Source: an uncultured bacterium
GTDB lineage: Bacteria; Fermentibacterota; Fermentibacteria; Fermentibacterales; Fermentibacteraceae
Assembly (NCBI GenBank): GCA_964564435.1
Contig: CAZMAT010000002.1
Span: 140,002-204,001 of the forward strand
Direction of reading: 5' to 3'
Length of the DNA: 64,000 nt
Below the pieces are notes generated by a model, which was not told the origin of the DNA, searched no databases, and saw only the letters and a list, made by a program, of their open reading frames with translations. The translations under genes and the position numbers were made by a program. This document shows, piece by piece, positions 9,826 to 63,989 of this stretch. Position 1 is the first letter of the stretch, and each line of letters begins with the position of its first letter.

Positions 9826-9982
9826 GGTCCCGACGGAGGCCTTCCAGAATTCTCTCGGGACGTCCCCGCCGGAAGCCATGGCCAGACCCTGGGAGTATTG
9901 ATGGTTCTATCAGGTCCCGACAGAAGCCTTCCAGAATTCTCTCGGGACGTCCCCGCCGGAAGCCATGGCAAGACCCTGGGAG
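9826..9982. repeat. tandem direct repeat, 2 x 70 nt (period 87 nt), duplicating the 3' end of the FAD-oxidoreductase gene
   Basis: Copy 1 (9826..9895) and copy 2 (9913..9982) differ at 3 positions. Copy 2 encodes the last 23 codons (AMASGGDVPREFWKASVGT*). Copy 1 lies just past the stop codon. Confidence 0.85.
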
Positions 9983-15279: not shown

Positions 15280-18200
15280 GCGGGAGCCTTCCTTTCCTCA
15301 GAATGGCTGCGGGCCGGGTCGCCGGGGCGGCCCGCGGGGGCATCGGATCCGGCGCGGCGGGAAGAACCGCGTGCTGCTGCGCCGCTCCTGACCTGGAACA
15401 TGAATGCCTCCAGCCTCGCGTCGTTGTCGGTATCCTCCTGGCCGTCGAAGGCAAGGTTGAGCCACGGCAGGCCGGGCAGATCCCTGCGTAGGCGCTTCGA
15501 TATCGCGGTGACGATCGTCCCGGGCAGGCAGGTGAACGGGAGCACGTTGACGGCCCCGTCGATCGCCCCCCTCCGGGCGAGGGCCACGGGCGCCCCTATG
15601 CAGAGTATCGCCTCCCCCCCGATGTTCTCCTTCATGTAGGGTCCGGCGGCTTCGAGAACCTCGGCGGCCCCGGGGTGGTGCCGTCCGGCAAGCAGCCCTG
15701 CGAAGGGGCGTTCCAGGTCTCGTTTGACATACTTGATGAGCAGGCTCTTGGCCGCCGCCCTGAGGATGTCCGCGGGCTTCCTCGAACGCAGGGCGCGCGT
15801 CATGAACGTGTGGTTGACGAACTCGAACCACTCCAGCACCCAGGTCGGCAGGACCTCCCCGCCGAGCGCCTCGATCCGGTCCTCCGTCCAGGAGTTCGCG
15901 TATGGATCGTTCCTGACGTAGATCTCACCGAAGACAAGAACCAGGGGCCTCTCGACGCCCGAAAGGGGGATCCGGCCGAAGAGGCCTGCCGACTTCCGCA
16001 TGGCCTCGCCCAGGCCCTCTCCCTTCTCCATGGCCCTCTCCACCAGGGACATGGCGGTGGTGAACGCCCTCGTTGCGTCGCCTTCCCTGGCTTCGTACGG
16101 GCTCGTGCGCCTGTACGCGGCCTTGAGGATGTCGGCACAGGTCGTGCCGCGGAGCAGGTCGAGCTGGAACGACGGCGAATCGAGGCCTGGCACCGAAGTG
16201 TAGGAATCCCTGGAGGAGGCGGTGATGATGGGCACGGAGGAGTATCCCGACCGGTCGAGCAGTATCCTGTGGTATGTGCAGTACTGGCCGAACCGGCAGG
16301 GGCCCGATGCAGTGCCCATGAAGAATGCCGTGCGGTCGGGATCGTTCTCCCCCAGCACCTTAAGCATGTTGCCCGAAGTGATGATGGCGGGATAGCACTC
16401 CTTGCCCGATGTGACGGTCCTTCCGAGAGCTACCGTCTCGCGGTCCGTCTCCGGCATCTCCCTGGCGTCGAGCCCCCTCCTCCTGGCCGCGGCGGCCACG
16501 AGCGCCGTGCCGTGACCGAGCCTGGGGACCCAGATCGTGCGGCCGACGGCTTCTCCTGCCCGCCTCCCGGGGAATTCAGTGATGCATGCCCGACTCTCCC
16601 CAGCCGAGGCGGGGAGGGAATCGAGGAAAGCCTCGCAGCGCGTGATCATCCCGGCATCGGCCGAGTGCTCGTCGGCCTCCAGGGTGAGGAACGGCGTCCC
16701 TTCCATGAGGGACGAGAAGTGGTGGTGGATGAAGGAATCCGGCCCGCAGCCGAAGTTCGTGAGATAGACGGCGCGGAGCCTCGGATCCCTCTTCACGGCC
16801 AGGGCCGCGGCCAGGATCTTCTGGCCGTAGTGCCAGTACATGTCGGGGCAGAGTGCTGCAGTCTCCCTCATCGGAAGGTCGAGCATCTCGGCGGGCATGA
16901 CACCGACCCCCATGCGCGACAGCTTGGCGGGGAGATCGGAGCTCACGGAGGGGTCGCATCCGTTGTAGGGCCTGCTCACGATCACGAGCATCGTGCCGTC
17001 TTCGGGCAGAGCGGCGAGAGCCTCCCTTCCGGCATCCCGGATGGACCGCTCGAACGAGTGCTGCGCCGCCAGAGCCTCCTCGACGGCCCTCGAGGCCTCG
17101 CCCGAAGTGCATCCCACAGACTCGCCCAGAGAGATCATCGCGGCCTTCCAGTCCGAAGTCTGCCCTGTGAAGTCGAGAACGGGGGCCAGCACCCCGATTC
17201 CCCTTCCGGCGAGCCCGAGGGAGGATTCGATGACGTAGGGAGAACCCGAGACGTACGGGCAGTTCTGAGCCTCCTCGAATCCCTCGTGCCTGAAGGCCCT
17301 GAGCATGGACGGGAGGAAGACCCTGCCGACACCCCGTTCGAGGAGATCCAGCACGTGGCCGTGGGCGATCTTCACGGGGAAGCAGGTCTCGGCAGCGACG
17401 TTCTCGACTCCCTTGTGCACGGTGGCCCCGGTCGAGGGCGACGACAGCACCACCCCGAAACCGAGGGACTCGAAGAACTTCCTGAAGAAGGGGAAGAACT
17501 CCCAGAACCAGAGTGCCCTGGGGATGCCGACGAGCCTCGAAGGGTCGGCGCCGGGATCAGGCGGCGTGTAGCCCCGCAGCAGGATCTCCTCACGGATCGG
17601 GAAGAGGTTGACGCCCTTCCCGCCGGCCGGTCTCCTGCCCGTCTCGTACTTCTCGCACCTGCCGCCGTAATGGAGCCGCCTGCCGTCGTCGAACCCGACC
17701 GAGTGGATCTCGCAACGGTTGGGGCAGCCCTCGCACACGAAGCTGGACTGCGTGTAGGAGGTCCCGGAGAGGCCGAAACCGCGGAAGGACGAAGGCTTCC
17801 CGGCAGACCTGTCCCTGGCGATCAGCGCGGCCCCGATGGCGCCGGTGACGTCGTGGTCAGGAGGGACCGTCACGGGTCTGCCGAGGACTGAGTTGAAGGC
17901 TGCAACCACGCCGGCGTTGTACGCCGTGCCGCCCTGGAAGAGGATCCTGCGGCCGGGCTTCCTGTCACCGACCACCCTGTGGAGGTAGTTCTGGACTATC
18001 GAATAGCACAGGCCGCCCACGATGTCCTCGACGGGGGCTCCCGCGGCCTGATGGGCGACCACGTCGCTCTCCATGAAGACGGTGCACCGCTCGCCGAGCC
18101 CGGAAGGGGCCGGAGCCTCGAGGGCCACCGGCCCGAACTCCCGGATGCCCAGTCCGAGACGTTCCGCCTGCTCTTCGAGGAACGATCCGGTACCGGCGGC

Positions 18201-19511
18201 ACAGACCTTGTTCATCTCGAAGTCGACGACCCTGCCGCCCTTGATGCTTATGTACTTGGAGTCCTGACCGCCTATCTCGAACACGGTATCCACGTCGGGG
18301 CAGGCCTCGACGGCCGCCCTGGCCTGCGCGGTGATCTCGTTGACCACGGTGTCGGCTCCCGTGAAGTCGCCGATCATGTAGCGGCCGGATCCGGTGACGC
18401 CCGCGGAGAGGATTCTCGCCCCCTCGCCGAGAGTCGCGCCCACCAGCGCAAGGCCCTTCTTGACGGCCTCGATGGGCCTGCCCGCCGTCATGAGGTACTC
18501 GCGGGCGGCGAGGCGCCCCGCCTCGTCGATGGCGGCCAGGTTCGTGCTTATGGAACCAACGTCTATCCCGAGGTGGTACCCCGCGCCGGCTCCAGGTGCC
18601 GCAGGCACGAAGGAAGGCGGCGGCGTGCCCCTGTGCTTCATCAGAGGGGGGTGGCTGCCGGCCGGTTCGGGATCGGCACCGAGGCCCGCGAGGAGGCCCG
18701 TGAACTGCTCCCCGGCGATGAATATCTGGTCGTCCTCGGCGCAGAGCGCCGCGCCTGCAGCGGTGAGCTCGGCCGAGTGGGAGGGGACCGTGATGCCTCC
18801 CCTGCATTCCGACAGGACTTCGCCGAAGGCCCTCACCATGCCGGCGTTGGACGCGACTCCGCCCACGAAGCCCACAGGAGGCCTGAACTCCTTCCCGCCC
18901 GCTATGATGCTCTTGAAGTTCCTGGCGACTGCCAGGCAGAGCCCGGCTACGATGTCCTCGGGAGGGGTGCCCACCTGCTGGAGGTGTATCATGTCGGACT
19001 TGGCGAATACGCTGCATCTCCCTGCCACCCTGGGCGGGTGCGGGCACCGGAGGGCGAGCATCCCCAGTTCCTCGGCGTCCATGCCCAGCCGCGTGGCCTG
19101 CTGGTCGAGGAAGGAGCCGGTTCCGGCCGCGCAGACGGAGTTCATCGAGAAATCGTCGAAGACGCACTTCCTGCCTTCGATCCTGAAGAGCAGGAGTTTG
19201 GAATCCTGCCCCCCCATCTCGATCACCGACCCGAACTCGGGATGCAGCCTGCAGATGGCCGCCGCGAGCGCCACCACCTCGTTCACCGGCCGTGCGCCTG
19301 CGATGGCTCCGACAGCCCTTGCGGCGGAGCCCGTTACGCATGCCGCGATGGTGCTCCAGCCGGGGATGGAGGGGAGGATGATCCCGAGGGTCTCGTAGGG
19401 GCGGCCGAGATGACGCCTGTAGACAGTGCGCGTGATCGCGCCGTTCTCGACCAGTGCGAGCTTTACGCTCACGGAACCCAGATCTATGCCCAGAACCCGT
19501 TCAGAATGCAT
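15258..19511 (-). CDS. CoA-substrate-specific enzyme activase fusion: two BadF/BadG/BcrA/BcrD-type ATPase domains plus HgdB-like (2-hydroxyacyl-CoA dehydratase beta) domain
   Basis: 1417 aa. Two tandem copies of the activase motif occur (GIDLGSVSVKLAL...MGGQDSK and GIDVGSISTNLAA...IGGQDSKYI). A Cys-rich DUF2229-like segment follows (FVCEGCPNRCEI), then a dehydratase-D-like domain. Confidence 0.75.
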   Translation of the reverse strand: MHSERVLGIDLGSVSVKLALVENGAITRTVYRRHLGRPYETLGIILPSIPGWSTIAACVTGSAARAVGAIAGARPVNEVVALAAAICRLHPEFGSVIEMGGQDSKLLLFRIEGRKCVFDDFSMNSVCAAGTGSFLDQQATRLGMDAEELGMLALRCPHPPRVAGRCSVFAKSDMIHLQQVGTPPEDIVAGLCLAVARNFKSIIAGGKEFRPPVGFVGGVASNAGMVRAFGEVLSECRGGITVPSHSAELTAAGAALCAEDDQIFIAGEQFTGLLAGLGADPEPAGSHPPLMKHRGTPPPSFVPAAPGAGAGYHLGIDVGSISTNLAAIDEAGRLAAREYLMTAGRPIEAVKKGLALVGATLGEGARILSAGVTGSGRYMIGDFTGADTVVNEITAQARAAVEACPDVDTVFEIGGQDSKYISIKGGRVVDFEMNKVCAAGTGSFLEEQAERLGLGIREFGPVALEAPAPSGLGERCTVFMESDVVAHQAAGAPVEDIVGGLCYSIVQNYLHRVVGDRKPGRRILFQGGTAYNAGVVAAFNSVLGRPVTVPPDHDVTGAIGAALIARDRSAGKPSSFRGFGLSGTSYTQSSFVCEGCPNRCEIHSVGFDDGRRLHYGGRCEKYETGRRPAGGKGVNLFPIREEILLRGYTPPDPGADPSRLVGIPRALWFWEFFPFFRKFFESLGFGVVLSSPSTGATVHKGVENVAAETCFPVKIAHGHVLDLLERGVGRVFLPSMLRAFRHEGFEEAQNCPYVSGSPYVIESSLGLAGRGIGVLAPVLDFTGQTSDWKAAMISLGESVGCTSGEASRAVEEALAAQHSFERSIRDAGREALAALPEDGTMLVIVSRPYNGCDPSVSSDLPAKLSRMGVGVMPAEMLDLPMRETAALCPDMYWHYGQKILAAALAVKRDPRLRAVYLTNFGCGPDSFIHHHFSSLMEGTPFLTLEADEHSADAGMITRCEAFLDSLPASAGESRACITEFPGRRAGEAVGRTIWVPRLGHGTALVAAAARRRGLDAREMPETDRETVALGRTVTSGKECYPAIITSGNMLKVLGENDPDRTAFFMGTASGPCRFGQYCTYHRILLDRSGYSSVPIITASSRDSYTSVPGLDSPSFQLDLLRGTTCADILKAAYRRTSPYEAREGDATRAFTTAMSLVERAMEKGEGLGEAMRKSAGLFGRIPLSGVERPLVLVFGEIYVRNDPYANSWTEDRIEALGGEVLPTWVLEWFEFVNHTFMTRALRSRKPADILRAAAKSLLIKYVKRDLERPFAGLLAGRHHPGAAEVLEAAGPYMKENIGGEAILCIGAPVALARRGAIDGAVNVLPFTCLPGTIVTAISKRLRRDLPGLPWLNLAFDGQEDTDNDARLEAFMFQVRSGAAARGSSRRAGSDAPAGRPGDPARSHSEERKAPAWDLRDS

Positions 19512-19565
19512 GTCGGTGTCCAGCTCCGTGGAGTCAGGCGTGGCGCCGCTCCCTGGCGGGGTGGT

Positions 19566-19898
19566 TCAGATGTCGTACCTGACGCTGGTGGCGTCGCCGG
19601 ATATCCAGATCGAGACGGAAGATGCGTCCTCGCACTCCGGGGGGATCGCCAGCGTGTCGGAGACCGAAGTGATCCCGCTGGTGTACGAGATCACGAGCTG
19701 TCCGGAGACCGGACCACGCAGGTCGCGGGAGACGGAAGAGGAGGCCTCCATCGAATCCCATTCGTAAGACGAGCCCGAGAGTTCGACCGAGATGCCGGTG
19801 ATCGGAACGCCGGAATCGTTGGCCACCTCCAGCTTCGGGCCCCCGCACCCGGCCAGGGCAAGGGCTGCTGCAACGGCAGCGATCAGTCTCCCGCGCAT
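19566..19898 (-). CDS. small lipoprotein (110 aa)
   Basis: MRGRLIAAVAAALALAGCGG lipobox. A GGGAGG RBS lies upstream. It is co-directional with and upstream of the activase gene. Confidence 0.5.
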   Translation of the reverse strand: MRGRLIAAVAAALALAGCGGPKLEVANDSGVPITGISVELSGSSYEWDSMEASSSVSRDLRGPVSGQLVISYTSGITSVSDTLAIPPECEDASSVSIWISGDATSVRYDI

Positions 19899-19951
19899 CT
19901 TCCGGACCTCCCGGTTCGGGTGAAGAGCTTCACCGACAGCAATGATCCGAG

Positions 19952-19957
19952 TATAAT
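19952..19957 (+). promoter_or_regulatory. candidate -10 box (TATAAT) in the divergent promoter region between the lipoprotein and AlkP operon
   Basis: A perfect TATAAT sits ~30 nt upstream of the proposed CTG start and ~17 nt upstream of the GAGGAGG RBS (19974..19980). Confidence 0.4.
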
Positions 19958-19985
19958 ACCGGCTACACGAATCGAGGAGGATCGC

Positions 19986-21980
19986 CTGAAGCCGCTGCTC
20001 CTGCTGGCCCTGCCCCTGCTCCTGCTTCCCGGGGTCTCCCCTGCCTATGTCGGGCCGGGGGCCGGGTTCGGGGTTGCCACCTCCTTCCTTGCCGTGCTCA
20101 ACGCGGTCGCCCTCTCCATGCTCTCCCTGCTGATATGGCCGTTCGTGTCCGCCAGGAGGGCTCTGCTGAGGTCGCGGATACCGAACCGGCCCCTTGCGAA
20201 GCGCGTGGTGGTGCTCGGCCTCGACGGCCTCTCCCCTGCGATCGCGGCCAGGCTTGCCGCGGAGGGCAGGATGCCCCGCCTCGCCGCTCTCGCCGGCGCG
20301 GGAACCCTCGCGGAACTCGCCACGACCACTCCCGGCATATCCCCGGTGGCTTGGACCACCTTCCAGACCGGTGTCGACCCCGGGAAGCACGGCATCTTCG
20401 ACTTCCTGGCGCCCGACAGGGCCAGATACGCCCCTGTGCTGTCCTCCGTGGAGACGGTGCGCACCCGCCGGGGAAGGGACACGGTCCGGGGCCTCAGGGG
20501 CTCCAGGCCCTTCTGGGAGCTGCTCGGCGCCTTCGGACTCCGTTCGGTCGTGCTCAGGGTCCCCGTGACGTATCCCCCTGGTCCGCTGGACGGGTACCTC
20601 CTCAGCGGCATGTGCGTGCCCGACCTCCGGGGGACCCAGGGTCTCTACACGCTTTTCGGCGAACGTGAGGGAGAGCTCCCCGGCGGCATCGAGGCCGTTC
20701 TCTCCCCGACAGGCAGGCGGCGCTGGGGGGGGGTGCTGGAAGGCCCCCCGTCGGGCTACGGGCCGCTGGAGGTCCATCTGGCAGAGAAGTCGGGAAGGTG
20801 GTCGGCGCGGATCGGGACGGGTGCCCCTGTCCGGCTCGAGCCGGGAGTGCTCTCGGACTGGGTGAGGCTCTCGTATCGCAGCATCACCCGCGGGCCCTCG
20901 GCCAGGGGCGTGGCGAGGCTCTGCCTTACCGCCGGAGACGCCCCCGCGCTCTATGTCTCCGCCATCCACCCCGATCCCTGGTCTCCTCCGTTCCCGATAT
21001 CGTCCCCCGTGCTCTATTCGAGATACCTTGCCTCGACTACCCCGTCCGGCAGCTACGCGACCCTCGGGCTCGCCGAGGACACGTGGGCCCTGATGAACGG
21101 GGCGCTCTCCGAACGGCAGTTCCTGTCCCAGGCGTGGTCGATCTTCGAGGAGAGGCGCGGGATGCTCCGCGACGCCCTGCGCAGGGTGAGACGGGGGCTG
21201 GCGGTCTGCGTCTTCGACACGCCCGACAGGATACAGCACGTCTGCTGGGCCGCGGGCGACGGTCGCGGGACCCCGGTCGGCGACGCCTACGAGCGTATGG
21301 ACGCGCTCATAGGCGAGACCGTCGACGCACTGGGGCGCGACGACCTCCTGATAGTGATGTCCGACCACGGCTTCACGGCCTTCGACACCTGTCTGGACCT
21401 CAACAGGTTCCTTTTCGAGAACGGGTTCCTGGTGTTCCGCGAGGGGGTCACCCCTCCGCAGGAAGACCTGTCGGGGGTGGACTGGTCCCGGACGAAGGCC
21501 TACTCGCTCGGCCTGGCCGGGATCATGCTCAACATGAAGGGGCGCGAATCCCGGGGCATCGTGGATCCCGGAGAAGAGGCCGCCTCGGTCATGGATGGGA
21601 TCTCGGAGAGGCTCCTCGCGCTCGCGGCACCAGACGGCCGCAGACCGGTCAAATCTGTCGCCAGGGCCTCGGATGCCTATCGGGGCCCCTATGTCGTAAG
21701 GGCGCCCGACCTGGTTGTCGGGACACATGCGGGCTTCAGGTCGTCCTGGCACAGCGTGACCGGGGGCACGGGCCTGTCCGCCGTCCATCCCAACCCGTAC
21801 CGCTGGACGGGCGACCACTGCCATGACAGCTCCCTCGTCCCGGGAATCCTTGCCTCGAATGCAAGGCTGGCAGGCCCGGCGTCGATCCGCGACATCGCTC
21901 CCACCGTGATGAGGGCGCTGGGACTAGACGCGCCTCCGTACATGGACGGCAGACCGCTGCTGGGAGGGGATCCGCGATGA
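19986..21980 (+). CDS. alkaline-phosphatase-superfamily type I phosphodiesterase/nucleotide pyrophosphatase (membrane-anchored), proposed CTG start
   Basis: PF01663-like motifs: VVLGLDGLSP, TTPGISPVAWTTFQTGVDPGKHGIFDF, and MSDHGF. The N-terminus MKPLLLLALPLLLLPGVSPA plus a TM helix only arises if CTG 19986 (or GTG 19920) is used. A GAGGAGG RBS lies 5 nt upstream of the CTG. Confidence 0.7.
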   Translation: MKPLLLLALPLLLLPGVSPAYVGPGAGFGVATSFLAVLNAVALSMLSLLIWPFVSARRALLRSRIPNRPLAKRVVVLGLDGLSPAIAARLAAEGRMPRLAALAGAGTLAELATTTPGISPVAWTTFQTGVDPGKHGIFDFLAPDRARYAPVLSSVETVRTRRGRDTVRGLRGSRPFWELLGAFGLRSVVLRVPVTYPPGPLDGYLLSGMCVPDLRGTQGLYTLFGEREGELPGGIEAVLSPTGRRRWGGVLEGPPSGYGPLEVHLAEKSGRWSARIGTGAPVRLEPGVLSDWVRLSYRSITRGPSARGVARLCLTAGDAPALYVSAIHPDPWSPPFPISSPVLYSRYLASTTPSGSYATLGLAEDTWALMNGALSERQFLSQAWSIFEERRGMLRDALRRVRRGLAVCVFDTPDRIQHVCWAAGDGRGTPVGDAYERMDALIGETVDALGRDDLLIVMSDHGFTAFDTCLDLNRFLFENGFLVFREGVTPPQEDLSGVDWSRTKAYSLGLAGIMLNMKGRESRGIVDPGEEAASVMDGISERLLALAAPDGRRPVKSVARASDAYRGPYVVRAPDLVVGTHAGFRSSWHSVTGGTGLSAVHPNPYRWTGDHCHDSSLVPGILASNARLAGPASIRDIAPTVMRALGLDAPPYMDGRPLLGGDPR

Positions 21981-23935
21981 GGAGGAGGGAGTTCCTGCGA
22001 CTCGCCGCCCTGGCGCCGGCAGCCGCCCTGGCATTCTCGTGCGCGGGGAGGTTCCGCACGGGCCGTGCCCGCAGGGTGATCCTGATCGGAATCGACGGGA
22101 TGGACCCGGGGCTCGCCAGGTCGTACATGGATGCCGGGCTGATGCCCAACTGCTCGAGGCTCGCCCGGATGGGCTCGTTCTCCCCTTTGCGCACGGAATT
22201 CCCGCCACAGAGCCCGGTGGCATGGTCCAGCTTCATCACCGGAACTGGCCCCGAGAGCCACGGGATATTCGACTTCATACACCGCGACCCCGTGACTCTT
22301 GCTCCCTACCTCTCCACTTCGGCGGTCGAACCGGGAGGACGTGACCTGAGACTCGGCTCCCTCAGGCTCCCCCTCGAGGGGTCCGCCACAAGGCTCCTCC
22401 GGGCGGGCGACCCCTTCTGGAAGCACCTGCGCGGCGACGGCATGCCGGTGACGCTGATGAAGCTCCCCGTCGACTTCCCGCCCGTGTCGGCGCACGGTGC
22501 GAGGATACTCTGCGGCCTGGGGACCCCGGACGTCAGGGGCAGCCAGGGCAGCTTCACCTTCTTCACCGACAACCCCATGAGGATCAGCGACGACACCGCG
22601 GGAGGCCTGGTGATCGCCGTCAGGGCGGAGGACGGGCGTTACTCCTGCCCGCTCGACGGCCCTCCGGACGGCTTCAGGGATGGCTCCCCCCCCTGCAGGG
22701 CATGGATCACCGTCACGGCCGACCCGGCCTCCGACGGGGTGCTCGTCGATACCGGCACCGGCTCGGCGGTGCTCGGGAGGGGCGAATGGAGCGGCTGGGT
22801 GCCGGTGGAGTTCGGGATGCTCGGAGGGCTCTCGAAGGTGAGATCCATCGCCAGGTTCCATCTCCGGTCCGTCTCTCCGCACCTCGAGCTCTACGTGAGC
22901 CCTCTCAACATGGACCCGTCGCATCCCTCCCTCCCCATATGCTCGCCCCGCGGGTTCGCGCCCGATCTCGCCTTCTCCCTCGGCCCGTTCCACACCAAGG
23001 GCTTCCCCGAGGACACCAAGGCCCTCTCGCGGGGCGTGCTGGACGACATGTCCTATCTGGGCCAGGCCTGCGACCTCTACGACGAGCAGCTGTCCCTGAT
23101 GAGGGAGGGCCTGGGCGGGTTCGACGACGGGCTCTTCTTCTTCTACTTCAGCACCCTCGACCTCAACGTCCACATGTTCTACAGGGACGTCGACGGCCTC
23201 AGCCCTACGCACAACACGGTGATGGACGGGGCGAGGGGGATCGTGCCGAGGCTCTACTCGATGCTGGACGGAGCGGTGGGCGAGGCCATGGAGGCTATGG
23301 ACGGCGACACCATGCTGCTCGTCTTCTCCGACCACGGATTCTCGCCGTTCCGCAGGGGCTTCAACCTCAACTCCTGGCTGGCCGCGGAGGGATACGCGAG
23401 GCTCTTCGATCCGGTGGCGGCCCGCGGCGAGATGTTCGCCGGGACCGACTGGAGCTCGACCTCGGCCTACGGGCTCGGCATCAACAGCCTCTACCTGAAC
23501 CTGCGCGGGAGGGAGGAAGGCGGGTCCGTCGACCCGACCCAGGCAGCGGCCCTCCTCGACAGGATAGCCACCGGGCTGCTCTCCGCCGTCGATCCGGCGA
23601 CCGGGCTCCATCCCGTGAGCAGCGTCAGGATCCTGGGCGGGGGCAGAGTCGCAGGGCTGCCCGCCCACGCCCCCGACATGCTGGTCGGCTACGCATCCGG
23701 CTACAGGTCCTCCTGGGACACCTCCCTGGGAGGCTATTCCGAGGAAGTCATATCCGACAACACCGATCCATGGAGCGGCGACCACTGCATGGACCCGGAC
23801 GCAGTGCCCGGCGTCCTCCTCTCCAGCATGCCTCTTCCGGGGGCGTCACCGGCGCTGCGTGACATAGGCAGGACGGCCTGCGCATTCCTGGGATCCACCA
23901 CCCTGCCGCCGGGGAGGGACCTCGGGGATGGATAG
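21977..23935 (+). CDS. alkaline-phosphatase-superfamily type I phosphodiesterase/nucleotide pyrophosphatase, TAT-secreted paralog
   Basis: Twin-arginine signal MRRREFLRLAALAPAAALA. It has the same motifs as its upstream paralog (ILIGIDGMDPG, SDHGFSPF). The ATGA overlap with the previous gene indicates coupling. Confidence 0.75.
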   Translation: MRRREFLRLAALAPAAALAFSCAGRFRTGRARRVILIGIDGMDPGLARSYMDAGLMPNCSRLARMGSFSPLRTEFPPQSPVAWSSFITGTGPESHGIFDFIHRDPVTLAPYLSTSAVEPGGRDLRLGSLRLPLEGSATRLLRAGDPFWKHLRGDGMPVTLMKLPVDFPPVSAHGARILCGLGTPDVRGSQGSFTFFTDNPMRISDDTAGGLVIAVRAEDGRYSCPLDGPPDGFRDGSPPCRAWITVTADPASDGVLVDTGTGSAVLGRGEWSGWVPVEFGMLGGLSKVRSIARFHLRSVSPHLELYVSPLNMDPSHPSLPICSPRGFAPDLAFSLGPFHTKGFPEDTKALSRGVLDDMSYLGQACDLYDEQLSLMREGLGGFDDGLFFFYFSTLDLNVHMFYRDVDGLSPTHNTVMDGARGIVPRLYSMLDGAVGEAMEAMDGDTMLLVFSDHGFSPFRRGFNLNSWLAAEGYARLFDPVAARGEMFAGTDWSSTSAYGLGINSLYLNLRGREEGGSVDPTQAAALLDRIATGLLSAVDPATGLHPVSSVRILGGGRVAGLPAHAPDMLVGYASGYRSSWDTSLGGYSEEVISDNTDPWSGDHCMDPDAVPGVLLSSMPLPGASPALRDIGRTACAFLGSTTLPPGRDLGDG

Positions 23936-30104: not shown

Positions 30105-30635
30105 ATGAACACTCAGGAGATGTTCGGGGATTTCCACCCGCTAGAGAGCAGTTCCTTCCAGTCCTTCTGCGAGCTCGTCAAGGTGAGCGACGGCGGCGCC
30201 CTGGTCACCCAGGGCGAGCAGTCGACGGACTTCTTCGTGCTGCTGAGGGGCTGTCTGAAGGTGACGGACCAGCGCACGGGCGAGGATTTCGTGCTCGCCC
30301 AGCTGTACGAGGGGGACGTGTTCGGCGAGATGTCGTTCCTCGACGGGAGCCCCAGATCGGCCACGGTCATCTCCGAGGGCGAATCCGAGATACTCCGCAT
30401 GAGCCGCCAGAGCTTCGCCCTCCTCCAGTCCGTCAACCCGTATCTCGGGCTGCTCATCCTGGTTTTCCTCGGGCGCATGATGTCCGGCAGGCTCAGGAGC
30501 GTCGACGAGAAGATGGCGGGGATGGCCAGGGAGCGCGACAACAGAGAGCTCTCCGAGCTCCGCAGGCTCATCTCCGGAATCCGGAGCTCGGTGCGGTCGC
30601 AGGTGGGCGATTCCGGAGAATCGGATCTCCTCTAG
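30105..30635 (+). CDS. cyclic-nucleotide-binding domain protein (no DNA-binding domain)
   Basis: cNMP-binding signature GDVFGEMSFLDGSPRSATV. 176 aa with no HTH. Confidence 0.8.
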   Translation: MNTQEMFGDFHPLESSSFQSFCELVKVSDGGALVTQGEQSTDFFVLLRGCLKVTDQRTGEDFVLAQLYEGDVFGEMSFLDGSPRSATVISEGESEILRMSRQSFALLQSVNPYLGLLILVFLGRMMSGRLRSVDEKMAGMARERDNRELSELRRLISGIRSSVRSQVGDSGESDLL

Positions 30636-30644
30636 AACCGGGGG

Positions 30645-31190
30645 GTGCCAATGTCCGGTGTGAAGAGGGTTTTCCCGCAGCTCAGCGCCTCCGAGGAGGC
30701 CGAGATCCTGTCCGAATGCACAAGGATGGAGGCGGGGGCTGGCACTGCCGTGCTGCGCAAGGGCGAGGGCGGTGGAGACCTGTACATCGTCGAATCCGGG
30801 GTTTTCAAGGTCTACGAGGAAACCGCCGGCGAGGACTTCGTGCTCGCCCTGCTCAACAGGGGCGACGTCTTCGGCGAGCTGTCCTTCCTCGACGGGTCGC
30901 CCAGGTCGGCCTGCGTGAGATGCCAGAACGACGGGAGCCTCCTGAGGTTCGGAAGGCCCGACTTCCCGAAGCTGCTCCTGAAGAACCCGTACACCGCCTC
31001 CAGGCTTCTCTTCAGCCTGGCCTCGATCGTGTCGGCGCGGCTCAGGAAGGCGGACGAGGCTCTCGCTGTCCTCGCCTTCGACGAACCGGACGCGTCGTCC
31101 GACGAGATGCACAGGCTCGCAGCCGAGATGCACCGGGCCGTCCACATGGAGCTTTCCCCGGGCTCCAGCGAAACGGCGCTTGAGTTCTGA
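30645..31190 (+). CDS. cyclic-nucleotide-binding domain protein, paralog
   Basis: GDVFGELSFLDGSPRSACV. 181 aa, 9 nt downstream of its paralog. Confidence 0.8.
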   Translation: MPMSGVKRVFPQLSASEEAEILSECTRMEAGAGTAVLRKGEGGGDLYIVESGVFKVYEETAGEDFVLALLNRGDVFGELSFLDGSPRSACVRCQNDGSLLRFGRPDFPKLLLKNPYTASRLLFSLASIVSARLRKADEALAVLAFDEPDASSDEMHRLAAEMHRAVHMELSPGSSETALEF

Positions 31191-54919: not shown

Positions 54920-55030
54920 TCGAGCTCCCGCGGCTTCATGGCCGACTGACCGGACAGAAACTACCGATTGCCGGCCCCCGGTGCAAGTCCCGGCGCATCA
55001 GGACCACTCCATCCGCCGCTCGGCGGGTCT

Positions 55031-57964: not shown

Positions 57965-58869
57965 CCCTCGTCCTCTCCTCTGGGGTGCGCCCTTCTGTAG
58001 ACTTCCCTGAGCCTGTCCCCGGTAAGGTGTGTGTATATCTGAGTCGTGGAGAGGCTGGCATGCCCCAGCATCTCCTGCACCGCCCTCAGGTCAGCCCCGT
58101 TGTCGAGTAGGTGGGTGGCGAAGCTGTGCCTGAAGGTGTGAGGGGTCGCACCCAGCGTCCTGGATGCGCCGCAGAGCCCTCTGGCGACTATCCTCCTTAT
58201 GTCCCTGGGATCGAGCCTCCTGCCGTTCCTGCTCACGAAGAGCCAGGGCGCCGAGGGGTCCCTCCTGGTGAACGACGGCCTTACGGACAGCCAGGAAGAT
58301 ATGACTGCGACCGACATTTCCGCCACAGGCACGATCCTGTCCCTTCCCCCCTTGCCGGAGACTATCCGCAGCATGCAGCGCTCGAGGTCGAGATCCTCGA
58401 GCCTTGCGGCTGAAGCCTCCGAGACCCTTGCGCCCGAGCCGTACAGGAGCTCCACGACCGCCCTGTCCCTCATGCCCGCCGCCGTGGATGTGTCGTAGGA
58501 CTCGAGTATGGACATCACCTCCGAGACACCCAGGAATCCCGGCAGCCTGCGCGGGGCCTTCGGCATCGGCAGGCGCGAGGCCTGCGAACCCACCGACCCG
58601 CCGCCGAGTTCGAGCCAGCCCTCGAGGGCCCTGAGAGCGGAGATCTCGCGGGAGACCGACCTCGGGGAGAGCCCGCGCTCCGATTCGCCCCTCACGAACG
58701 CTCTGAGTGTATCCGAATCGAACCTCGGGGTTCCTTCGCAGAAGTCGAGGAACTTGCGGAGATCCGACATGTACGAGGATGCCGTCCGGACGGACAGGCC
58801 CCTGGTGCCGGTGAGCCAGGAGGAGAAGGCTCCTAGGAGTTCCCGGCCGGCTTCCGGCAGCTCGGACAC
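57961..58869 (-). CDS. xerD: tyrosine recombinase XerC/XerD family
   Basis: R...HxxR...Y catalytic set (ARVSE..., HTFRHSFATHLL, LGHASLSTTQIYTH). GTG start chosen by alignment; ATG 58911 is an alternative. The 5' end overlaps the topA 3' end by 37 nt. Confidence 0.8.
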   Translation of the reverse strand: MSELPEAGRELLGAFSSWLTGTRGLSVRTASSYMSDLRKFLDFCEGTPRFDSDTLRAFVRGESERGLSPRSVSREISALRALEGWLELGGGSVGSQASRLPMPKAPRRLPGFLGVSEVMSILESYDTSTAAGMRDRAVVELLYGSGARVSEASAARLEDLDLERCMLRIVSGKGGRDRIVPVAEMSVAVISSWLSVRPSFTRRDPSAPWLFVSRNGRRLDPRDIRRIVARGLCGASRTLGATPHTFRHSFATHLLDNGADLRAVQEMLGHASLSTTQIYTHLTGDRLREVYRRAHPRGEDEG

Positions 58870-61019
58870 ATCAGCCCCTTCGCGGTCTCCTCGAGGTACG
58901 GGAAGCCGCATCTCTCGCAGTTGCGAGCCACGGGCTTCCTCCACGAGGCGTGCCTGCACTCGGGGTAGCGGCTGCAGGAATAGAAGATACGCCCTTTCTT
59001 CGATCTGCGCTCGACGAGCTCGCCGCTGCATCCCTCCTCGGGGCAGGCCACACCGGTCGGGGCCGGTTCGGTGTGACGGCAATCCACCCCGGAGCAGCCC
59101 AGGTACCTTCCGAACCTGCCCGTCCGGAACACGAGCGGGGAGCCGCATTCAGGGCATTTCCTCCCGCTGTCGACCGCCGTTTCGGCCGACTTCCTGAACC
59201 TGCACGAGGGATAGTCCGAGCAGGAGAGGTAGCTGCCGAACCTGCCGGGCTTGAGGAGCAGAGGCGAACCGCACTGGGGGCACTTCTCGCCGGTCTGGCG
59301 CGAGAGCCCGCTCCGCACCCGCCCGAGGTTCTCGACGGCCGACTTGAGGGACTGCTCGAGGGGCTCCTGGAGCCGTGAGACAGCCTCTTCGTAGCTCGTG
59401 CCGCCGGAAGCCACGCTGTCGAGCATCTCCTCCATGGACGCAGTGAAGGATGTCTCGAAGATGGCAGGGAAGAGCTCCACGAGGAGCCGCACGGTCGCAG
59501 TGCCGAGCTCGGTGGGCCTGAGCCTCTTCTCGCTGAGCACCACGTAGCTCCTCTTCCTGATGGTGTCTATGATGCTCACATAGGTCGACGGGCGGCCTAT
59601 CCCGAGCTTCTTCATCTCGGCCACCAGCCCTGCCTCCGTGAACCTGGACGGAGGCTTGGTGAAGCACTGCTCGGCCGTCACGTCGAGGAGCCCGGCCCGG
59701 CCTTCGGCGAGGGAGCCGGGCATCGGCGACTCGATCGAAGCCTGGCCGGGGTCTATCGTGAGGAATCCTCTCGATCTAAGCGCTTCTCCCGTAGCCCGGA
59801 ACTCGTAGACGCCTCCCGTGAACGTCACCGCAGTGCGGTCGACGATGGCGTCGGCGGCCTGGGATGCTGTGAAGCGCCTCCAGATCAGGCCGTAGAGCCT
59901 GAGATGCTGGTCCGGTATCCTGCCTTTAAGCATCTCCGGGGTCCTGGCGGGATCGGTCGGCCTTATGGCCTCGTGCGCGTCCTGCGAGCCTGAAGAACTC
60001 CTGAATCTCCTCGGCGAGGCAGGGAGCATCCCGGGACCGAAGGCGGCCTCCAGGAATTCCCTGGCGGCCAGCTGCGCCTCCGGGGCTATCCTGACCGAAT
60101 CGGTCCTCATGTACGTGATCAGGCCCGAGTGCTCTCCGCCGATGTCCATGCCCTCGTAAAGCTCCTGGGCCAGGGACATGGTCCTGGAGGGAGACAGCCC
60201 GAGCGTGCTGGACGCGCTCTGCTGGAGGGTGCTCGTGATGAACGGAGGCAGCGGCCTGAGGGTGGCCTCCTTGCGCTCGATCGAGGACAGCATCCACGAT
60301 TCGGCCCGGATCGCCGGGAGGAGCCTGTCGACCTCCTCCTTCGATCCTGGTGCGTGCCTGTCGCCGTCGGCCCGCTTCCCCGCGATCCGGACGAGCGTGG
60401 TGGAGACATCCTCCCCTCCCTGCCCGAAGCGCGCCTTCACGGGCCAGTACTCCACGGGGACGAAGGAGGCGATCTGATCCTCCCTCTCCTGCACGAGCCT
60501 CAGCGCGACGGACTGGACCCTGCCTGCGCTGAGCCCCGAGCTTATGGCACGCCAGAGGTAGGGGCTGATCCTGTATCCCACCAGGCGGTCCATCACGCGC
60601 CTTGCCTGCTGGGCATCGACGAGGTCCATGTCGATCCCGCCGGCCTTCTTGAGCGAACCCAGTACGGCGTCCTTCGTTATCTCGTTGAACTTCATCCTCT
60701 TGAACTTCACGCCATCCCTCTTCAGTAGCTCGGAGAGGTGCCAGCAGATGGCCTCGCCCTCCCTGTCGGGGTCGGCTGCGAGATAGATGGTGTCGTACTT
60801 CTTCGCGATCCTCCTCAGGTCGTCGATCGTCGACCTCTTCTCAGGCAGGATCGTGTACTGGGGCTTGAAGCCGGAATCCGTGGAAACGCCCAGGCGCTGC
60901 CTGGGCAGGTCGCGGACATGGCCCATGGATGCGACGATCTCGAAGTCTCCGCCGAGGTATCCCCTGAGCGTCCGGGCCTTGGCGGGGGATTCTATTATGA
61001 CGAGGCTTCCCGCGCTCAT
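58833..61019 (-). CDS. topA: DNA topoisomerase I with C-terminal zinc-ribbon repeats
   Basis: TOPRIM N-terminus LVIIESPAKART. The active-site region (...YMRTDS...) and three C4 zinc ribbons (CPQCGSPL..., CPECGSPL..., CERCGFPY...) are present. The long ORF is trimmed to the Met giving 728 aa. Confidence 0.88.
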   Translation of the reverse strand: MSAGSLVIIESPAKARTLRGYLGGDFEIVASMGHVRDLPRQRLGVSTDSGFKPQYTILPEKRSTIDDLRRIAKKYDTIYLAADPDREGEAICWHLSELLKRDGVKFKRMKFNEITKDAVLGSLKKAGGIDMDLVDAQQARRVMDRLVGYRISPYLWRAISSGLSAGRVQSVALRLVQEREDQIASFVPVEYWPVKARFGQGGEDVSTTLVRIAGKRADGDRHAPGSKEEVDRLLPAIRAESWMLSSIERKEATLRPLPPFITSTLQQSASSTLGLSPSRTMSLAQELYEGMDIGGEHSGLITYMRTDSVRIAPEAQLAAREFLEAAFGPGMLPASPRRFRSSSGSQDAHEAIRPTDPARTPEMLKGRIPDQHLRLYGLIWRRFTASQAADAIVDRTAVTFTGGVYEFRATGEALRSRGFLTIDPGQASIESPMPGSLAEGRAGLLDVTAEQCFTKPPSRFTEAGLVAEMKKLGIGRPSTYVSIIDTIRKRSYVVLSEKRLRPTELGTATVRLLVELFPAIFETSFTASMEEMLDSVASGGTSYEEAVSRLQEPLEQSLKSAVENLGRVRSGLSRQTGEKCPQCGSPLLLKPGRFGSYLSCSDYPSCRFRKSAETAVDSGRKCPECGSPLVFRTGRFGRYLGCSGVDCRHTEPAPTGVACPEEGCSGELVERRSKKGRIFYSCSRYPECRHASWRKPVARNCERCGFPYLEETAKGLMCPSCRKPAGNS

Positions 61020-61066: not shown

Positions 61067-62428
61067 TCAGTAGCGGGCCATCCAGTCCTGCAGGGGACCC
61101 GAGAGGATGCTCCAGACCTCCTGGTTCGTGGTCCCGGCGCAGTTCTGGAAGTCGACCGGGCCCATGCAGGCCGACACCGCCGGGAAGCTCGCCCTGACGA
61201 AGGACACCGTCCTCACCGGGTAGTACTCGCTCTCGCTGTAGTAGAACACGAGTTCGTCGACGGGTCCCTCGCCCAGCCATGCCGTCAGCGCCCTGAGGAG
61301 CGCGTACCTGTAGGTGTCCTCCACCGGGTGCAGTATGGTCACCGCGGCGACGACCGTGCTGTCGGGCATCCTGAAGACCGCGAACCTGTCCAGGGTGATC
61401 GGGATCGAAGCTGCGATCCTGGCCAGGTCGCCTTCGAGCATCTCCCCGGCTTCGGCCATGACATCGATCCCGGACGGCGCCTGGGTCTCGAGGGGCACGG
61501 CCGGAGCGTCCGTTATGGAATCGGCTCCCGGGGGGAGCGGAAGGCCGGAAAGGGATGACAGGATGTCCTCGTCGCCGGGATTGTCCGGACCCTGGATGGC
61601 CGTCGAATCGGGCGTCAGGGCCAGCGTGTCCGCAGGAATGGTGTCGGGAGGCGCCACTGATGTGGAATCTGCCGGTTCCGCATCCGGGGGTGCGGCGTGG
61701 AACAGCCCGAGCGGGTCGAGGAGGTAGAAAGCCGCGAGAAGTCCCAGAACGGCCACTCCCGCCGCGACGTACGCGATGTTCCTGGATCCGCCCCTGCCCT
61801 GCGACGCCGGTGCAGCCTGCATGGTCTGGTCGGAGCCATGCCTGGACTGGGGTCTGGACGTGGCCGTGCGCGCGAGGGGCGCATCCACGACCTTGCCGTC
61901 CGCGGCGCACTTCTGGCAGACATGGGCGATCCTGTCGAAGCAGTCGCGGCACGTCAGCTCGGCGCAGGAGCGGCATGGCGCCAGCTTCTCCCCTCCCGTG
62001 GGGGTCCTGCCGCATACGTGGCAGCGCTCGATGGACAGGACCTCCTCGCTGGCGGAGGTGACCGAAAGCTTCTCCTCGTGCTTGACGGGGGGTGGAGGGG
62101 TGTGGGAGGCCGAATCATCCAGCTCCCCGAAATCCTCTTCCTCCTCCTGGACCCGGGGCGGCTCCATGGGAGCCTCCTCCTGCTGGTCCTCGACGGTCTC
62201 CATCCTCGGGAGCAGGTCGACGAAGGGATACAGCCTGTTCTGTATGACTCTGGCCCGGCCCATCGGCACGGCCTCCAGCAGGACCAGCGGGGCCTTGTCG
62301 ACGGATGACCTTGCTTCCTCGCGGGTCATGTGCAGCTCGGACACGAGGAGTTCCAGGACGCGCTGCTTCTCCTCCTCCCTGCCGAGCCGGACGAGGAGGA
62401 GATCGACGAGAGCTTCCGAGAGGTCCAT
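61067..62428 (-). CDS. hypothetical membrane protein with cytoplasmic zinc-ribbon and periplasmic/extracytoplasmic C-terminal domain
   Basis: 453 aa. N-terminal ~70-aa helical domain, an acidic linker, a C4 zinc ribbon (CHVCGR...CRSC...CRDC...CQKC), one TM helix, and a C-terminal ~200-aa domain. Confidence 0.45.
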   Translation of the reverse strand: MDLSEALVDLLLVRLGREEEKQRVLELLVSELHMTREEARSSVDKAPLVLLEAVPMGRARVIQNRLYPFVDLLPRMETVEDQQEEAPMEPPRVQEEEEDFGELDDSASHTPPPPVKHEEKLSVTSASEEVLSIERCHVCGRTPTGGEKLAPCRSCAELTCRDCFDRIAHVCQKCAADGKVVDAPLARTATSRPQSRHGSDQTMQAAPASQGRGGSRNIAYVAAGVAVLGLLAAFYLLDPLGLFHAAPPDAEPADSTSVAPPDTIPADTLALTPDSTAIQGPDNPGDEDILSSLSGLPLPPGADSITDAPAVPLETQAPSGIDVMAEAGEMLEGDLARIAASIPITLDRFAVFRMPDSTVVAAVTILHPVEDTYRYALLRALTAWLGEGPVDELVFYYSESEYYPVRTVSFVRASFPAVSACMGPVDFQNCAGTTNQEVWSILSGPLQDWMARY

Positions 62429-62513
62429 CAGACCATCCCCCTGTCTTCTTCGTATCCGCCTTGCGGATCGACGGGAGGCACCGGGCCCGGATCCGGGATC
62501 GCCGGGTCGTCCG

Positions 62514-63116
62514 TCATGCCGTTCCCTCGTCGGCCTCGAACTGCCGGTGCAGCCTGGTGATTACCATGCGGCTCACCTTGCGAAGGGTCTCGAAGACACC
62601 GATACCCTTTGCCGCCACGGCTTCGACGATGGGTATGCGGCTCAGCCCGAGAGTCTCGCTGATCTCCTCCACCGAGGCTATGTCGGGCAGATCGCGCTTG
62701 TTGCACTGGAGGACGAGGCTGACGCCCTTCCTCTTCTGGTTCTTGAGATTGTCCCTGAGATCCCTGAGCGAGGCGATGTTAGCCTCCATCCTGTCCCTCT
62801 GGGAGTCGGCGACGAATACGATGCCGTCTACGCCCTGGAGGATCAGCCTCCTGCTGTCGGAGTACATGGCCTGCCCCGGGACGCTGTAGAGATGGAGCCT
62901 GATCTTGAACCCGTTGATCGTTCCGGTATCGAGGGGGAGGAAGTCGAAGAACAGGGTCCTCTCGTTGCCGGCGGCGAGGGAGATGAGCTTGCCCCTGTTG
63001 TCGGCGGGAACCTCACCGTGGATGACCTTGACGTTGGTCGTCTTGCCGGAGAGCCCCGGACCGCAGTAGACGATCTTGCAGTCGATCTCGCGGGCGCTGT
63101 AGCTGACGGTCGCCAA
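62514..63116 (-). CDS. mglA: MglA-like Ras-family small GTPase (paralog 2, closest to canonical MglA)
   Basis: CKIVYCGPGLSGKTTNV...RTLFFDFLPLD...IRLHLYSVPGQ...VFVADSQRDRMEAN...QCNKRDLP...GIGVFETL. Very close to Myxococcus/Thermus MglA. Confidence 0.85.
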   Translation of the reverse strand: MATVSYSAREIDCKIVYCGPGLSGKTTNVKVIHGEVPADNRGKLISLAAGNERTLFFDFLPLDTGTINGFKIRLHLYSVPGQAMYSDSRRLILQGVDGIVFVADSQRDRMEANIASLRDLRDNLKNQKRKGVSLVLQCNKRDLPDIASVEEISETLGLSRIPIVEAVAAKGIGVFETLRKVSRMVITRLHRQFEADEGTA

Positions 63117-63119
63117 GCG

Positions 63120-63314
63120 TCACTCCCCCCCGGGCTGCCCTGAGCCGGGATGGCTCTGGTTGTCGTCCATGCCGTCACGGATGCCCTTCTTGAACTCCCT
63201 CAGGGCCTGTCCGAGGGATCTGGCGATGTCCGGTATCCGCTTCGCCCCGAAGAGCAGGAGCAGAGCCACGACTATCAGGCCTATCTCCAGGGGCGAAGGA
63301 CGGAACATACCCAC
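63120..63314 (-). CDS. tatA: twin-arginine translocase subunit TatA/E
   Basis: MGMFRPSPLEIGLIVVALLLLFGAKRIPDIARSLGQALREFKKG has the typical TatA TM helix plus amphipathic helix. 64 aa. Confidence 0.8.
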   Translation of the reverse strand: MGMFRPSPLEIGLIVVALLLLFGAKRIPDIARSLGQALREFKKGIRDGMDDNQSHPGSGQPGGE

Positions 63315-63326: not shown

Positions 63327-63599
63327 TCAGAACCACCTGTAGAGGACGCCTACCAGTATCAGCCCGAGGAAGCTCATCAGGTTGACCCTGAAGGCTATCT
63401 CCTCGAGAGCGAATCTCATCACCACGAGGTCCAGCCGGAAGGGTCCGAGCGAGAACTCGAGCGAGCCGGCGAAGAAGGATCTGAGCGTGGTCGCCGTGTC
63501 GGGGAGGATCAGGGCCATGCCCTCGCCGAATGCCGTACCCGCCATCATCCCCAGCAGGGACATCGCTATCCAGAACCCGGGTGGTCTCTTGTTGAGCAA
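63327..63599 (-). CDS. small membrane protein (90 aa), unknown function
   Basis: Two predicted TM helices. It sits between tatA and the next membrane-protein gene. Confidence 0.35.
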   Translation of the reverse strand: MLNKRPPGFWIAMSLLGMMAGTAFGEGMALILPDTATTLRSFFAGSLEFSLGPFRLDLVVMRFALEEIAFRVNLMSFLGLILVGVLYRWF

Positions 63600-63623: not shown

Positions 63624-63989
63624 CTATTCTTGGCCCGGTTCCCGAACAAGCCCGCCCTGCAGGCGCGCCATCACACCCGACCTCATCAGGGATGCCGAGG
63701 CGATGCCGACTATCGCGCCGGAAAACACGGCCCACGCTGCGGCCGGCGGCAGAAGCGCCCGCACGGGAAGGCCCGGGAGTATGGCGCATGCGGCTATGAG
63801 CTGGGCGGCCATGCCGGCTGCGCTCCCTGCCACCGAGAGGGCGGTGATGGACAGGCGCCCGGGCACCAGCCGGGAGCATGACCCCATCATCAATGCCGAC
63901 GAAAGAGCGCTGCTCATGGACAGGACGAACGAGGGAGTCGCCAGGGTGCCCGTCGCCAGGGCCACGGCAAGGCATCTGGTGGCGTTCAC
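63624..63989 (-). CDS. polytopic membrane protein, probably truncated by the window end
   Basis: 121 aa, hydrophobic, Ala/Gly-rich. The start at 63989 is only 11 nt from the window edge, so the true start may lie outside. Confidence 0.3.
   Translation of the reverse strand: MNATRCLAVALATGTLATPSFVLSMSSALSSALMMGSCSRLVPGRLSITALSVAGSAAGMAAQLIAACAILPGLPVRALLPPAAAWAVFSGAIVGIASASLMRSGVMARLQGGLVREPGQE

Follow-up and report, generated by a model that had tools for sequence, protein, structure and literature searches.

Conserved adjacency of an mglA gene without a nearby mglB and a gene for a lineage-specific membrane protein in Fermentibacteria

The DNA analyzed here is a stretch of 64,000 nucleotides from the genome of an uncultured member of the Fermentibacteraceae (GCA_964564435.1, contig CAZMAT010000002.1; hereafter, the window), and its subject is a pair of adjacent genes: mglA-2, which encodes an MglA small GTPase, and znr, which encodes a 453-aa membrane protein given the working name ZnR. 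The two genes are tightly adjacent throughout the phylum, ZnR is confined to that phylum, and no gene for MglB lies nearby. The region has a G+C content of 67% and every gene lies on the minus strand, where the 5′ to 3′ order is a heptaprenyl-diphosphate-synthase-I-like gene, a DUF4321 gene, tatA, mglA-2, znr, topA, a gene for a XerC/D-type recombinase, and a gene for a TMEM260-like GT-C protein, followed by a second MglA gene (mglA-1), a gene for a 741-aa membrane protein, and dapF (Table 1). An earlier, sequence-only reading of this locus had placed mglA-2, tatA, the 453-aa open reading frame (ORF), the 85-nt spacer, and a paralog 7.6 kb away, and all of these coordinates and distances are correct.

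Table 1. Features of the mglA-2/znr locus, with positions in the window.
Feature	Position	Strand	Basis or remark
mglA-2, predicted Group-1-type MglA small GTPase, 200 aa, TTG start	62514-63116	minus	PDB 6h17
Spacer between mglA-2 and znr, 85 nt	62429-62513	minus	Palindrome and Shine-Dalgarno sequence
ZnR, 453 aa	61067-62428	minus	85 nt downstream of mglA-2
ZnR 1-75, cytosolic domain with predicted bL12 C-terminal-domain fold	62204-62428	minus	AlphaFold2, Foldseek
ZnR 76-119, acidic, variable, disordered linker	62072-62203	minus	pLDDT ~40; length and sequence vary in the alignment
ZnR 120-178, conserved TSASEE motif, then eight-cysteine, putative two-zinc module	61895-62071	minus	Alignment
ZnR 216-237, single transmembrane helix, N-terminus inside	61718-61783	minus	AlphaFold2 helix
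ZnR 238-289, extracytoplasmic Pro/Asp/Thr-rich linker with D-[ST]-[AILMTV] array	61562-61717	minus	
ZnR 290-453, extracytoplasmic alpha/beta domain, fast-evolving	61070-61561	minus	pLDDT ~95
mglA-1, predicted Group-1-type MglA paralog, 192 aa	54341-54919	minus	PDB 6hjh
Polytopic membrane protein, 741 aa	52132-54357	minus	17-nt overlap with the mglA-1 stop
tatA, 64 aa	63120-63314	minus	Pfam TatA_B_E (PF02416) 2e-16
topA (topoisomerase I)	58833-61019	minus	Pfam Toprim, Topoisom_bac, Zn_ribbon_Top1; 47 nt downstream of ZnR
DUF4321 small membrane protein, 90 aa, heads the tightly packed string	63327-63599	minus	Pfam PF14209 4e-7
Heptaprenyl-diphosphate-synthase-I-like gene	63624-63989	minus	
TMEM260-like GT-C protein, 977 aa	55031-57964	minus	

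MglA-2 matches the MglA structure 6h17 in the PDB over its full length (E=4e-65, 222 bits) and MglA-1 matches 6hjh (E=8e-55, 189 bits), with Arf proteins as the next-best PDB matches of both GTPases at ~1e-8. The stronger match to solved MglA structures identifies MglA-2 as the more canonical copy, as had been proposed from the letters of the sequence, and the motifs GIGVFETL and RDRMEAN named there are present. The two paralogs are 51% identical to each other. MglA-2 contains the P-loop G19-P-G21-L-S-G-K25-T26, the arginine finger within E-R53-T54, and the motifs S78-V-P-G-Q82 and N139-K-R-D142; MglA-1 carries residues equivalent to the P-loop, arginine finger, SVPGQ, and NKRD, and both GPGLSGKT and NKRD are invariant among orthologues. 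The residue numbering of MglA-2 is that of Myxococcus xanthus MglA through Q82, and NKRD (139-142) stands two residues lower than in M. xanthus owing to a short deletion. Group 1 MglA proteins are distinguished by an intrinsic arginine finger and by TVPGQ replacing DxxGQ (Wuichet and Sogaard-Andersen; PMC4316618). Judged by their residues, both paralogs are Group-1-type MglA proteins, having an arginine finger beside the G2 threonine, a T/S-V-P-G-Q G3 motif, a P-loop with G21, and an [NT]KxD G4 motif. Serine is the one substitution tolerated at position 78 of M. xanthus MglA (PMC3000849). The MglA of Bdellovibrio, which is without mglB, has S21 and has been proposed to be GTP-locked (PMC3983030), and G21 in both paralogs therefore argues against a Bdellovibrio-like GTP-locked state. 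With G21, R53, and Q82 intact, both appear to cycle between nucleotide states and would be expected to need a GTPase-activating protein (GAP).

MglA-2 is extremely conserved, with a Kimura distance of 0.18 and orthologues that are 74-98% identical throughout the phylum, and it has a conserved C-terminal RLHRQF tail. MglA-1 and MglA-2 form two separate clades in the tree, which indicates that the duplication is older than the radiation of the phylum. In Candidatus Sabulitectum silens JCC-6 (L055, ~9400-9900), mglA-2 is frameshifted near its 3′ end, and topA and the GT-C gene are without an adequate tblastn match at that locus; these defects probably reflect assembly quality rather than pseudogenization.

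Pfam scans of essentially all plausible ORFs in the 64-kb window found neither Robl_LC7 (MglB) nor type IV pilus or gliding genes, and the gene context of the window is housekeeping. A hidden Markov model of MglB, built from M. xanthus MglB (identical to PDB 6h5b_B) and three outgroup MglB proteins, was run against six-frame ORFs of the window and 70 loci and matched just the three outgroup positive controls. There is thus no MglB in the window or in 67 Fermentibacteria loci, and neither paralog has mglB within ~10 kb. In a canonical MglA/MglB module mglB lies within four genes of mglA, and no mglB was found within that distance here; the place of mglB in canonical mglBA operons is occupied by tatA. 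The three nearest MglA proteins from outside the Fermentibacteria (57-59% identical to MglA-2) have a Robl_LC7 gene directly upstream in 3/3 cases. A search of a large protein database with M. xanthus MglB was uninformative for Fermentibacteria, all of the 120 matches listed of 8000 being from Myxococcota. In a published survey, 390 of 449 MglA genes were within four genes of mglB and 59 were orphans (PMC4316618); the mglB-less arrangement is a minority state, yet already known. As regards mglB, the survey and the outgroups bear out the earlier remark that two MglA paralogs without MglB, both beside membrane proteins, are unusual. Seen in this setting, mglA-2 appears to be a catalytically complete Group-1 MglA gene that has lost its canonical upstream mglB.

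The ZnR protein of the window has no significant sequence match in Pfam, NCBIfam, or PDB, and its anatomy was examined in an AlphaFold2 model made on a 33-homologue alignment (mean predicted local distance difference test score [pLDDT] 75.5). The N-terminal domain, taken for a helical domain in the sequence-only reading, is alpha/beta in the model, with the topology b-a-a-b-a-b and a pLDDT of 89-95 over the core (residues 11-70). Foldseek aligns it with the bL12 C-terminal domain (CTD) in 1ctf (TM 0.80, rmsd 1.9 Å, 66 columns, probability 1.0) and with many further bL12 entries (TM range 0.73-0.80, rmsd about 2 Å). The sequence signal is weak: PF00542 matches 18 of the 33 family members at E<=1 (best 1.5e-5), with the window protein itself unmatched, and the ZnR profile reaches bL12 sequences in the PDB at E ~0.4-1 through a shared EA..V..AP motif. 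Comparison of the ZnR family with an MglB alignment by hhalign gave a probability of 0.5%, and the top Foldseek match is bL12-CTD rather than Roadblock. The modelled N-terminal domain can be assigned confidently to the bL12-CTD fold and is not Roadblock-like, so that the Roadblock comparison suggested beforehand did not hold.

The second cytosolic module is larger than the C4 zinc ribbon that had been read from the sequence, as it contains eight invariant cysteines together with H137 and H169. The full set of invariant residues is R135, C136, H137, C139, C152, C155, C160, C163, H169, C171, and C174, and the cysteines follow the FYVE-like spacing C-x2-C-x12-C-x2-C-x4-C-x2-C-x7-C-x2-C, of which the first six are spaced identically to EEA1-type FYVE domains (x2, x12, x2, x4, x2). 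One NCBI record labels a ZnR homologue as a "FYVE zinc finger domain-containing protein." Pfam FYVE (PF01363) matches 11 of the 33 members weakly (best 0.033), the Pfam and PDB matches of the module to FYVE, RING, PHD, and UBR fingers are all insignificant, and its pLDDT is just 67-80. FYVE domains bind phosphoinositides through the motifs WxxD, R(R/K)HHCR, and RVC. ZnR has neither WxxD nor RRHHCR, reading EKLAPCRSC and AHVCQKC instead.

The one transmembrane helix and the extracytoplasmic domain reported from the sequence are both present in the AlphaFold2 model (residues 216-237 and 290-453). Arg and Lys residues precede the helix, and an invariant D238-P239 and an acidic stretch follow it, which places the N-terminus in the cytosol. 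The linker on the outer side is rich in conserved D-[ST]-[AILMTV] motifs, with 154 in the linkers of the ZnR family versus 33.9 expected from shuffles, and a density of 7.4 per 100 aa versus 0.4 in the cytosolic part. This is the general O-glycosylation motif of Bacteroidota (PMC8550257). Two GT-C-type membrane glycosyltransferase-like genes are located within 7 kb of the sequence encoding the linker, although a glycosylation tie between these genes and the linker sequons is speculative.

For the extracytoplasmic domain, Foldseek found no convincing structural relative in the PDB. The PD-(D/E)XK nuclease, PhzF, and DHH folds came up with low probability and low TM and were judged meaningless, and a hidden Roadblock domain (a-b-b-a-b-b-a order) was rejected, as the domain is periplasmic and such a fold finds no support from Foldseek or hhalign. 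The mean Kimura distances are 0.38 for the N-terminal domain of ZnR, 0.36 for its other cytosolic module, 0.53 for TopA, and 1.21 for the periplasmic domain of ZnR. This constraint on the cytosolic modules, with divergence of the outer domain, fits cytosolic modules that bind conserved cytosolic partners.

ZnR homologues fall into 88 protein clusters, and all named ones are from Candidatus Fermentibacteria, Sabulitectum, or Aegiribacteria. A HMMER profile search of 1.84 billion representative proteins returned 45 matches and no full-length ZnR relative beyond the family, the remaining matches being one repeated-bL12-CTD protein and weak matches to the zinc module only. The ZnR family has not been described before, is specific to this lineage, and combines its domains in a new way. 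Single modules occur elsewhere: the protein P0107 (1056 aa) has at least five tandem bL12-CTD-like repeats, and the bacterial proteins P0108-P0122 share the eight-cysteine module of ZnR, with N-terminal double zinc ribbons and a DETKK motif ahead of it and TPR-like and beta-helix-like regions behind it. Both bL12-CTD-like and zinc modules therefore circulate outside ribosomal and eukaryotic contexts.

Scanning one genome per GTDB species identified 61 loci, of which all with a named lineage are from Fermentibacteria and some are labelled just "uncultured bacterium"; the closest locus encodes a ZnR that is 95% identical. The gene mglA-2 is directly upstream of znr in 55 of the 56 GTDB species loci with enough upstream DNA and in four of six metagenome loci. 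The order tatA-mglA-ZnR-topA, which the sequence-only reading had put forward for comparative genomics, is kept in the same 55/56 species-level genomes, even where ZnR identity falls to 29% and that of TopA to ~50%. The small protein encoded upstream of mglA-2 belongs to TatA/E, scoring 59.2 bits against PF02416 (cut-off 21) and 54.4 bits against NCBIfam TIGR01411 (cut-off 53.9).

Spacing within this string is tight. In the window, tatA ends 3 nt upstream of mglA-2; over 48 scored loci the median distance between the tatA stop and the mglA-2 start is -1 nt, and tatA overlaps or abuts mglA-2 in all 48. The median gap from mglA-2 to znr is also -1 nt, with a 1-nt overlap in 30 of the 48 loci, and that from znr to topA is 48 nt. 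The 85 nt of the window is the longest mglA-2/znr gap seen among the 48 loci, and so long a spacer is found just in the window and in the locus with the 95% identical ZnR (L007). The spacer holds a perfect 12-nt palindrome, CCCGGATCCGGG, and an AGGGGGA Shine-Dalgarno sequence. A promoter/terminator scan found no sites between tatA and topA, which fits co-transcription without proving it, and the genes may also be co-translated.

A tentative reading of this arrangement, plausible but somewhat less likely than not, is that ZnR is a membrane-anchored partner or effector of MglA-2, with the physical interaction and the direction of signalling being inferred. In such a system, MglA-2 would cycle between GTP and GDP, and MglA-2-GTP would bind the cytosolic part of ZnR, which is strongly conserved. 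ZnR itself would be a Fermentibacteria-specific single-pass inner-membrane protein composed, in order, of a bL12-CTD-fold domain, a linker, the TSASEE motif, a two-zinc module, the transmembrane helix, a sequon-rich linker, and a periplasmic domain, and it would serve as a membrane-anchored receptor or effector that couples the GTPase switch to the envelope or to type IV pilus polarity.

Several observations are in keeping with a partnership. The CTD of bL12 is a ribosomal stalk domain that docks translational GTPases. An effector role proposed from the sequence would sit badly with an N-terminal fold unlike any GTPase-interacting domain and with an adjacency that was not conserved; what was found is a fold resembling the GTPase-binding bL12-CTD and an adjacency kept across the phylum. 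Moreover, mglA-1 is followed by the gene for the 741-aa membrane protein with TPR repeats in 48/48 loci, in parallel with mglA-2 and znr. The nearest functional precedent is GltJ of M. xanthus, which ZnR resembles in its logic and not in its domains or sequence. Fermentibacteria have been described as diderm rods that have no flagella and carry type IV pilus and mreBCD genes (PMC5030696), and a polarity or pilus role for MglA is plausible given the rod shape, the diderm envelope, and the pilus genes. Part of the earlier interpretation is thus borne out, in that the arrangement exists, is conserved, and departs from the canonical one; for a partnership between MglA-2 and ZnR the evidence is circumstantial.

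On the other hand, the same data contain a number of points that weigh against such a partnership and favor another explanation, namely that ZnR acts independently of MglA-2 in the envelope or in transmembrane signalling and that the two genes have merely been neighbors since the ancestor of the phylum. The whole ~20-kb block (hpf, hprK, ptsH, ptsI, sugar-nucleotide and glycosyltransferase genes, tatA, mglA-2, znr, topA, xerC, GT-C, hslVU, and mglA-1) is collinear and densely packed with overlapping genes phylum-wide. Since unrelated housekeeping genes show the same order and the same packing in all loci examined, adjacency and overlap are not specific to mglA-2 and znr, and in the window the two are in any case separated by 85 nt. 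In a low-G+C clade (L002, L004, and L066), mglA-2 is missing from this position without leaving a remnant; tatA is followed there by an AT-rich spacer of 124-145 nt and then by znr (~9850-10000), and the sole local MglA falls in the MglA-1 clade. The ZnR of these three loci nevertheless has a conserved N-terminal domain, TSASEE motif, and zinc module, so its cytosolic domains were retained after mglA-2 had vanished from the position. Rate covariation across 31 loci, with the TopA, XerC, and GT-C distances regressed out, gave no specific signal either, as the correlation of MglA-2 with the N-terminal domain of ZnR (r=0.48) is not above the level of DUF4321 (0.47) and the GT-C protein (0.49). 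Within ZnR, the helices that match the factor-binding face of bL12 vary among family members, and the invariant polar residues of the N-terminal domain (D9, R14, E20, R60, Q63, D71, and R75) are located on helix 3 and strands 1 and 3, which leaves a bL12-like binding mode unsupported. Neither a GYF domain nor an N-terminal C4 finger of the GltJ type was found in the window protein and its 33 homologues. Inherited synteny without a functional tie, although doubtful, is a serious possibility. It accounts less readily for a gene order that outlasted the fall in sequence identity of both ZnR and TopA, for a stop/start overlap between mglA-2 and znr as the commonest state, and for the recurrence of an MglA gene with a membrane protein gene at mglA-1; the clade without mglA-2 also still has MglA-1, which could serve ZnR.

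Two further explanations give the neighborhood a more specific function. ZnR could replace MglB, with its bL12-CTD-like domain or its zinc module stimulating GTP hydrolysis or nucleotide exchange by MglA-2, in which case ZnR would stabilize MglA-2, whose arginine finger is intrinsic, in its active conformation. Analogues exist for both sides of such a mechanism: translational GTPases are presumably stimulated by the bL12-CTD, and MglB provides no catalytic residues when it acts. An MglA-2 that keeps G21, R53, and Q82 should still need a GAP (PMC4316618), the outgroups have the mglB directly upstream that is absent nearby in Fermentibacteria, and the bL12-CTD fold assignment is confident. This replacement is quite unlikely all the same: the absence of mglB is established for the window and the related loci, conservation within the ZnR family lies elsewhere than on the surface equivalent to the bL12 factor-binding helices, ZnR is without Roadblock similarity, and ZnR persists where mglA-2 is gone from the position. 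The neighbor on the other side of mglA-2 could alternatively be the relevant one, such that TatA would be the target or partner of MglA-2 and ZnR, for example in the positioning or control of the twin-arginine translocase, and motility or polarity would not be involved. The contact between tatA and mglA-2 is indeed universal among the scored loci, and tatA sits where the outgroups have mglB. However, we found no precedent for MglA acting on the Tat system, tatA remains in place in the loci without mglA-2 at this position, and tight spacing is general throughout the block, all of which make a Tat-related unit highly improbable.

The reading of ZnR as a partner of MglA-2 may be extended to the phylum as a whole, although in this wider form it is unlikely: Fermentibacteria would run MglA without MglB, each ancient paralog would be hard-wired to its own membrane protein, and a bL12-derived domain would have been co-opted in ZnR as a docking or activating module. 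If true, such a domain would represent a new class of MglA regulator or effector, joining the GTPase cycle to a periplasmic and probably glycosylated sensor domain.

The remaining neighbors are of more general character. A DUF4321 gene is located upstream of tatA in nearly all related loci. The 741-aa protein encoded after mglA-1 has weak Pfam matches to TPR_19 in its C-terminal part (9e-5) and to Dpy19 (GT-C-like; 2e-4), both under the gathering scores. In most Fermentibacteria loci, hslV-hslU stands between the TMEM260-like gene and mglA-1 (L001-L066, ~17400-19700); it is missing there in the window and in its closest relatives (L007-L009), and just ~110 nt (54920-55030) separates the flanking genes of the window. 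Elsewhere on the plus strand, the window encodes an adjacent paralogous pair of type I phosphodiesterases/nucleotide pyrophosphatases (19602-23935) and two neighboring proteins with cyclic-nucleotide-binding domains (30105-31190), neither of which has an apparent relation to mglA-2 or ZnR.

Among bacteria, the model Ras-like polarity switch is MglA, knowledge of which comes almost entirely from Myxococcus, Thermus, and Bdellovibrio. An uncultured phylum is found here to keep two MglA paralogs, apparently catalytically intact, neither of which adjoins a GAP gene and each of which is packed against a membrane protein gene. A functional pairing would make ZnR a compact new membrane receptor or regulator of MglA and would give a non-ribosomal bL12-CTD-like domain its first functional lead. 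Should the adjacency be no more than inherited synteny, the locus comes down to an orphan MglA paralog beside an uncharacterized lineage-specific membrane protein.

Compared with the Group 1 MglA of M. xanthus and Thermus thermophilus (6h17, 3t12), MglA-2 shares the full-length match, the G21 P-loop, R53/T54, T/S-V-P-G-Q, and NKxD. It differs from them in having no mglB within four genes, with tatA at that place, in having Ser78 for Thr, and in having the RLHRQF tail and a paralog 7.6 kb away. MglA-family GTPases without an adjacent mglB include SofG of M. xanthus and the MglA of Bdellovibrio, which have been shown to be functional (PMC4316618), and Bdellovibrio MglA works with a TPR protein (PMC3983030). 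Similarly, mglA-1 is followed here by the gene for a TPR-repeat protein. TPR proteins are known as MglA partners in both of the former organisms, namely SgmX in Myxococcus and Bd2492 in Bdellovibrio. Unlike the Bdellovibrio protein with S21, both Fermentibacteria paralogs have G21; the neighboring genes also differ from those of SofG and Bdellovibrio MglA.

A membrane protein that responds to MglA is known from the Agl-Glt gliding machinery of M. xanthus, in which GltJ, a single-pass inner-membrane protein, reads MglA-GTP through a switch made of a cytosolic zinc finger, a disordered linker, and a GYF domain; its N-terminal C4 finger (residues 1-42) binds MglB and its linker binds MglA-GTP (PMC11135422). 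ZnR is similarly a single-pass inner-membrane protein with a cytosolic zinc module and a disordered linker. In contrast to GltJ, however, it begins with the bL12-CTD-like domain, has its eight-cysteine module near the membrane and no GYF domain, and shows no sequence homology. With the bL12-CTD (PF00542, 1ctf), ZnR shares fold and topology, whereas it lacks the N-terminal dimerization/L10-binding domain, is non-ribosomal and fused to a membrane protein, and varies in the factor-face helices. The zinc module resembles FYVE and other cross-brace two-zinc fingers (PF01363) in its eight cysteines and their compatible spacing, while the phosphoinositide motifs are absent and the matches insignificant.

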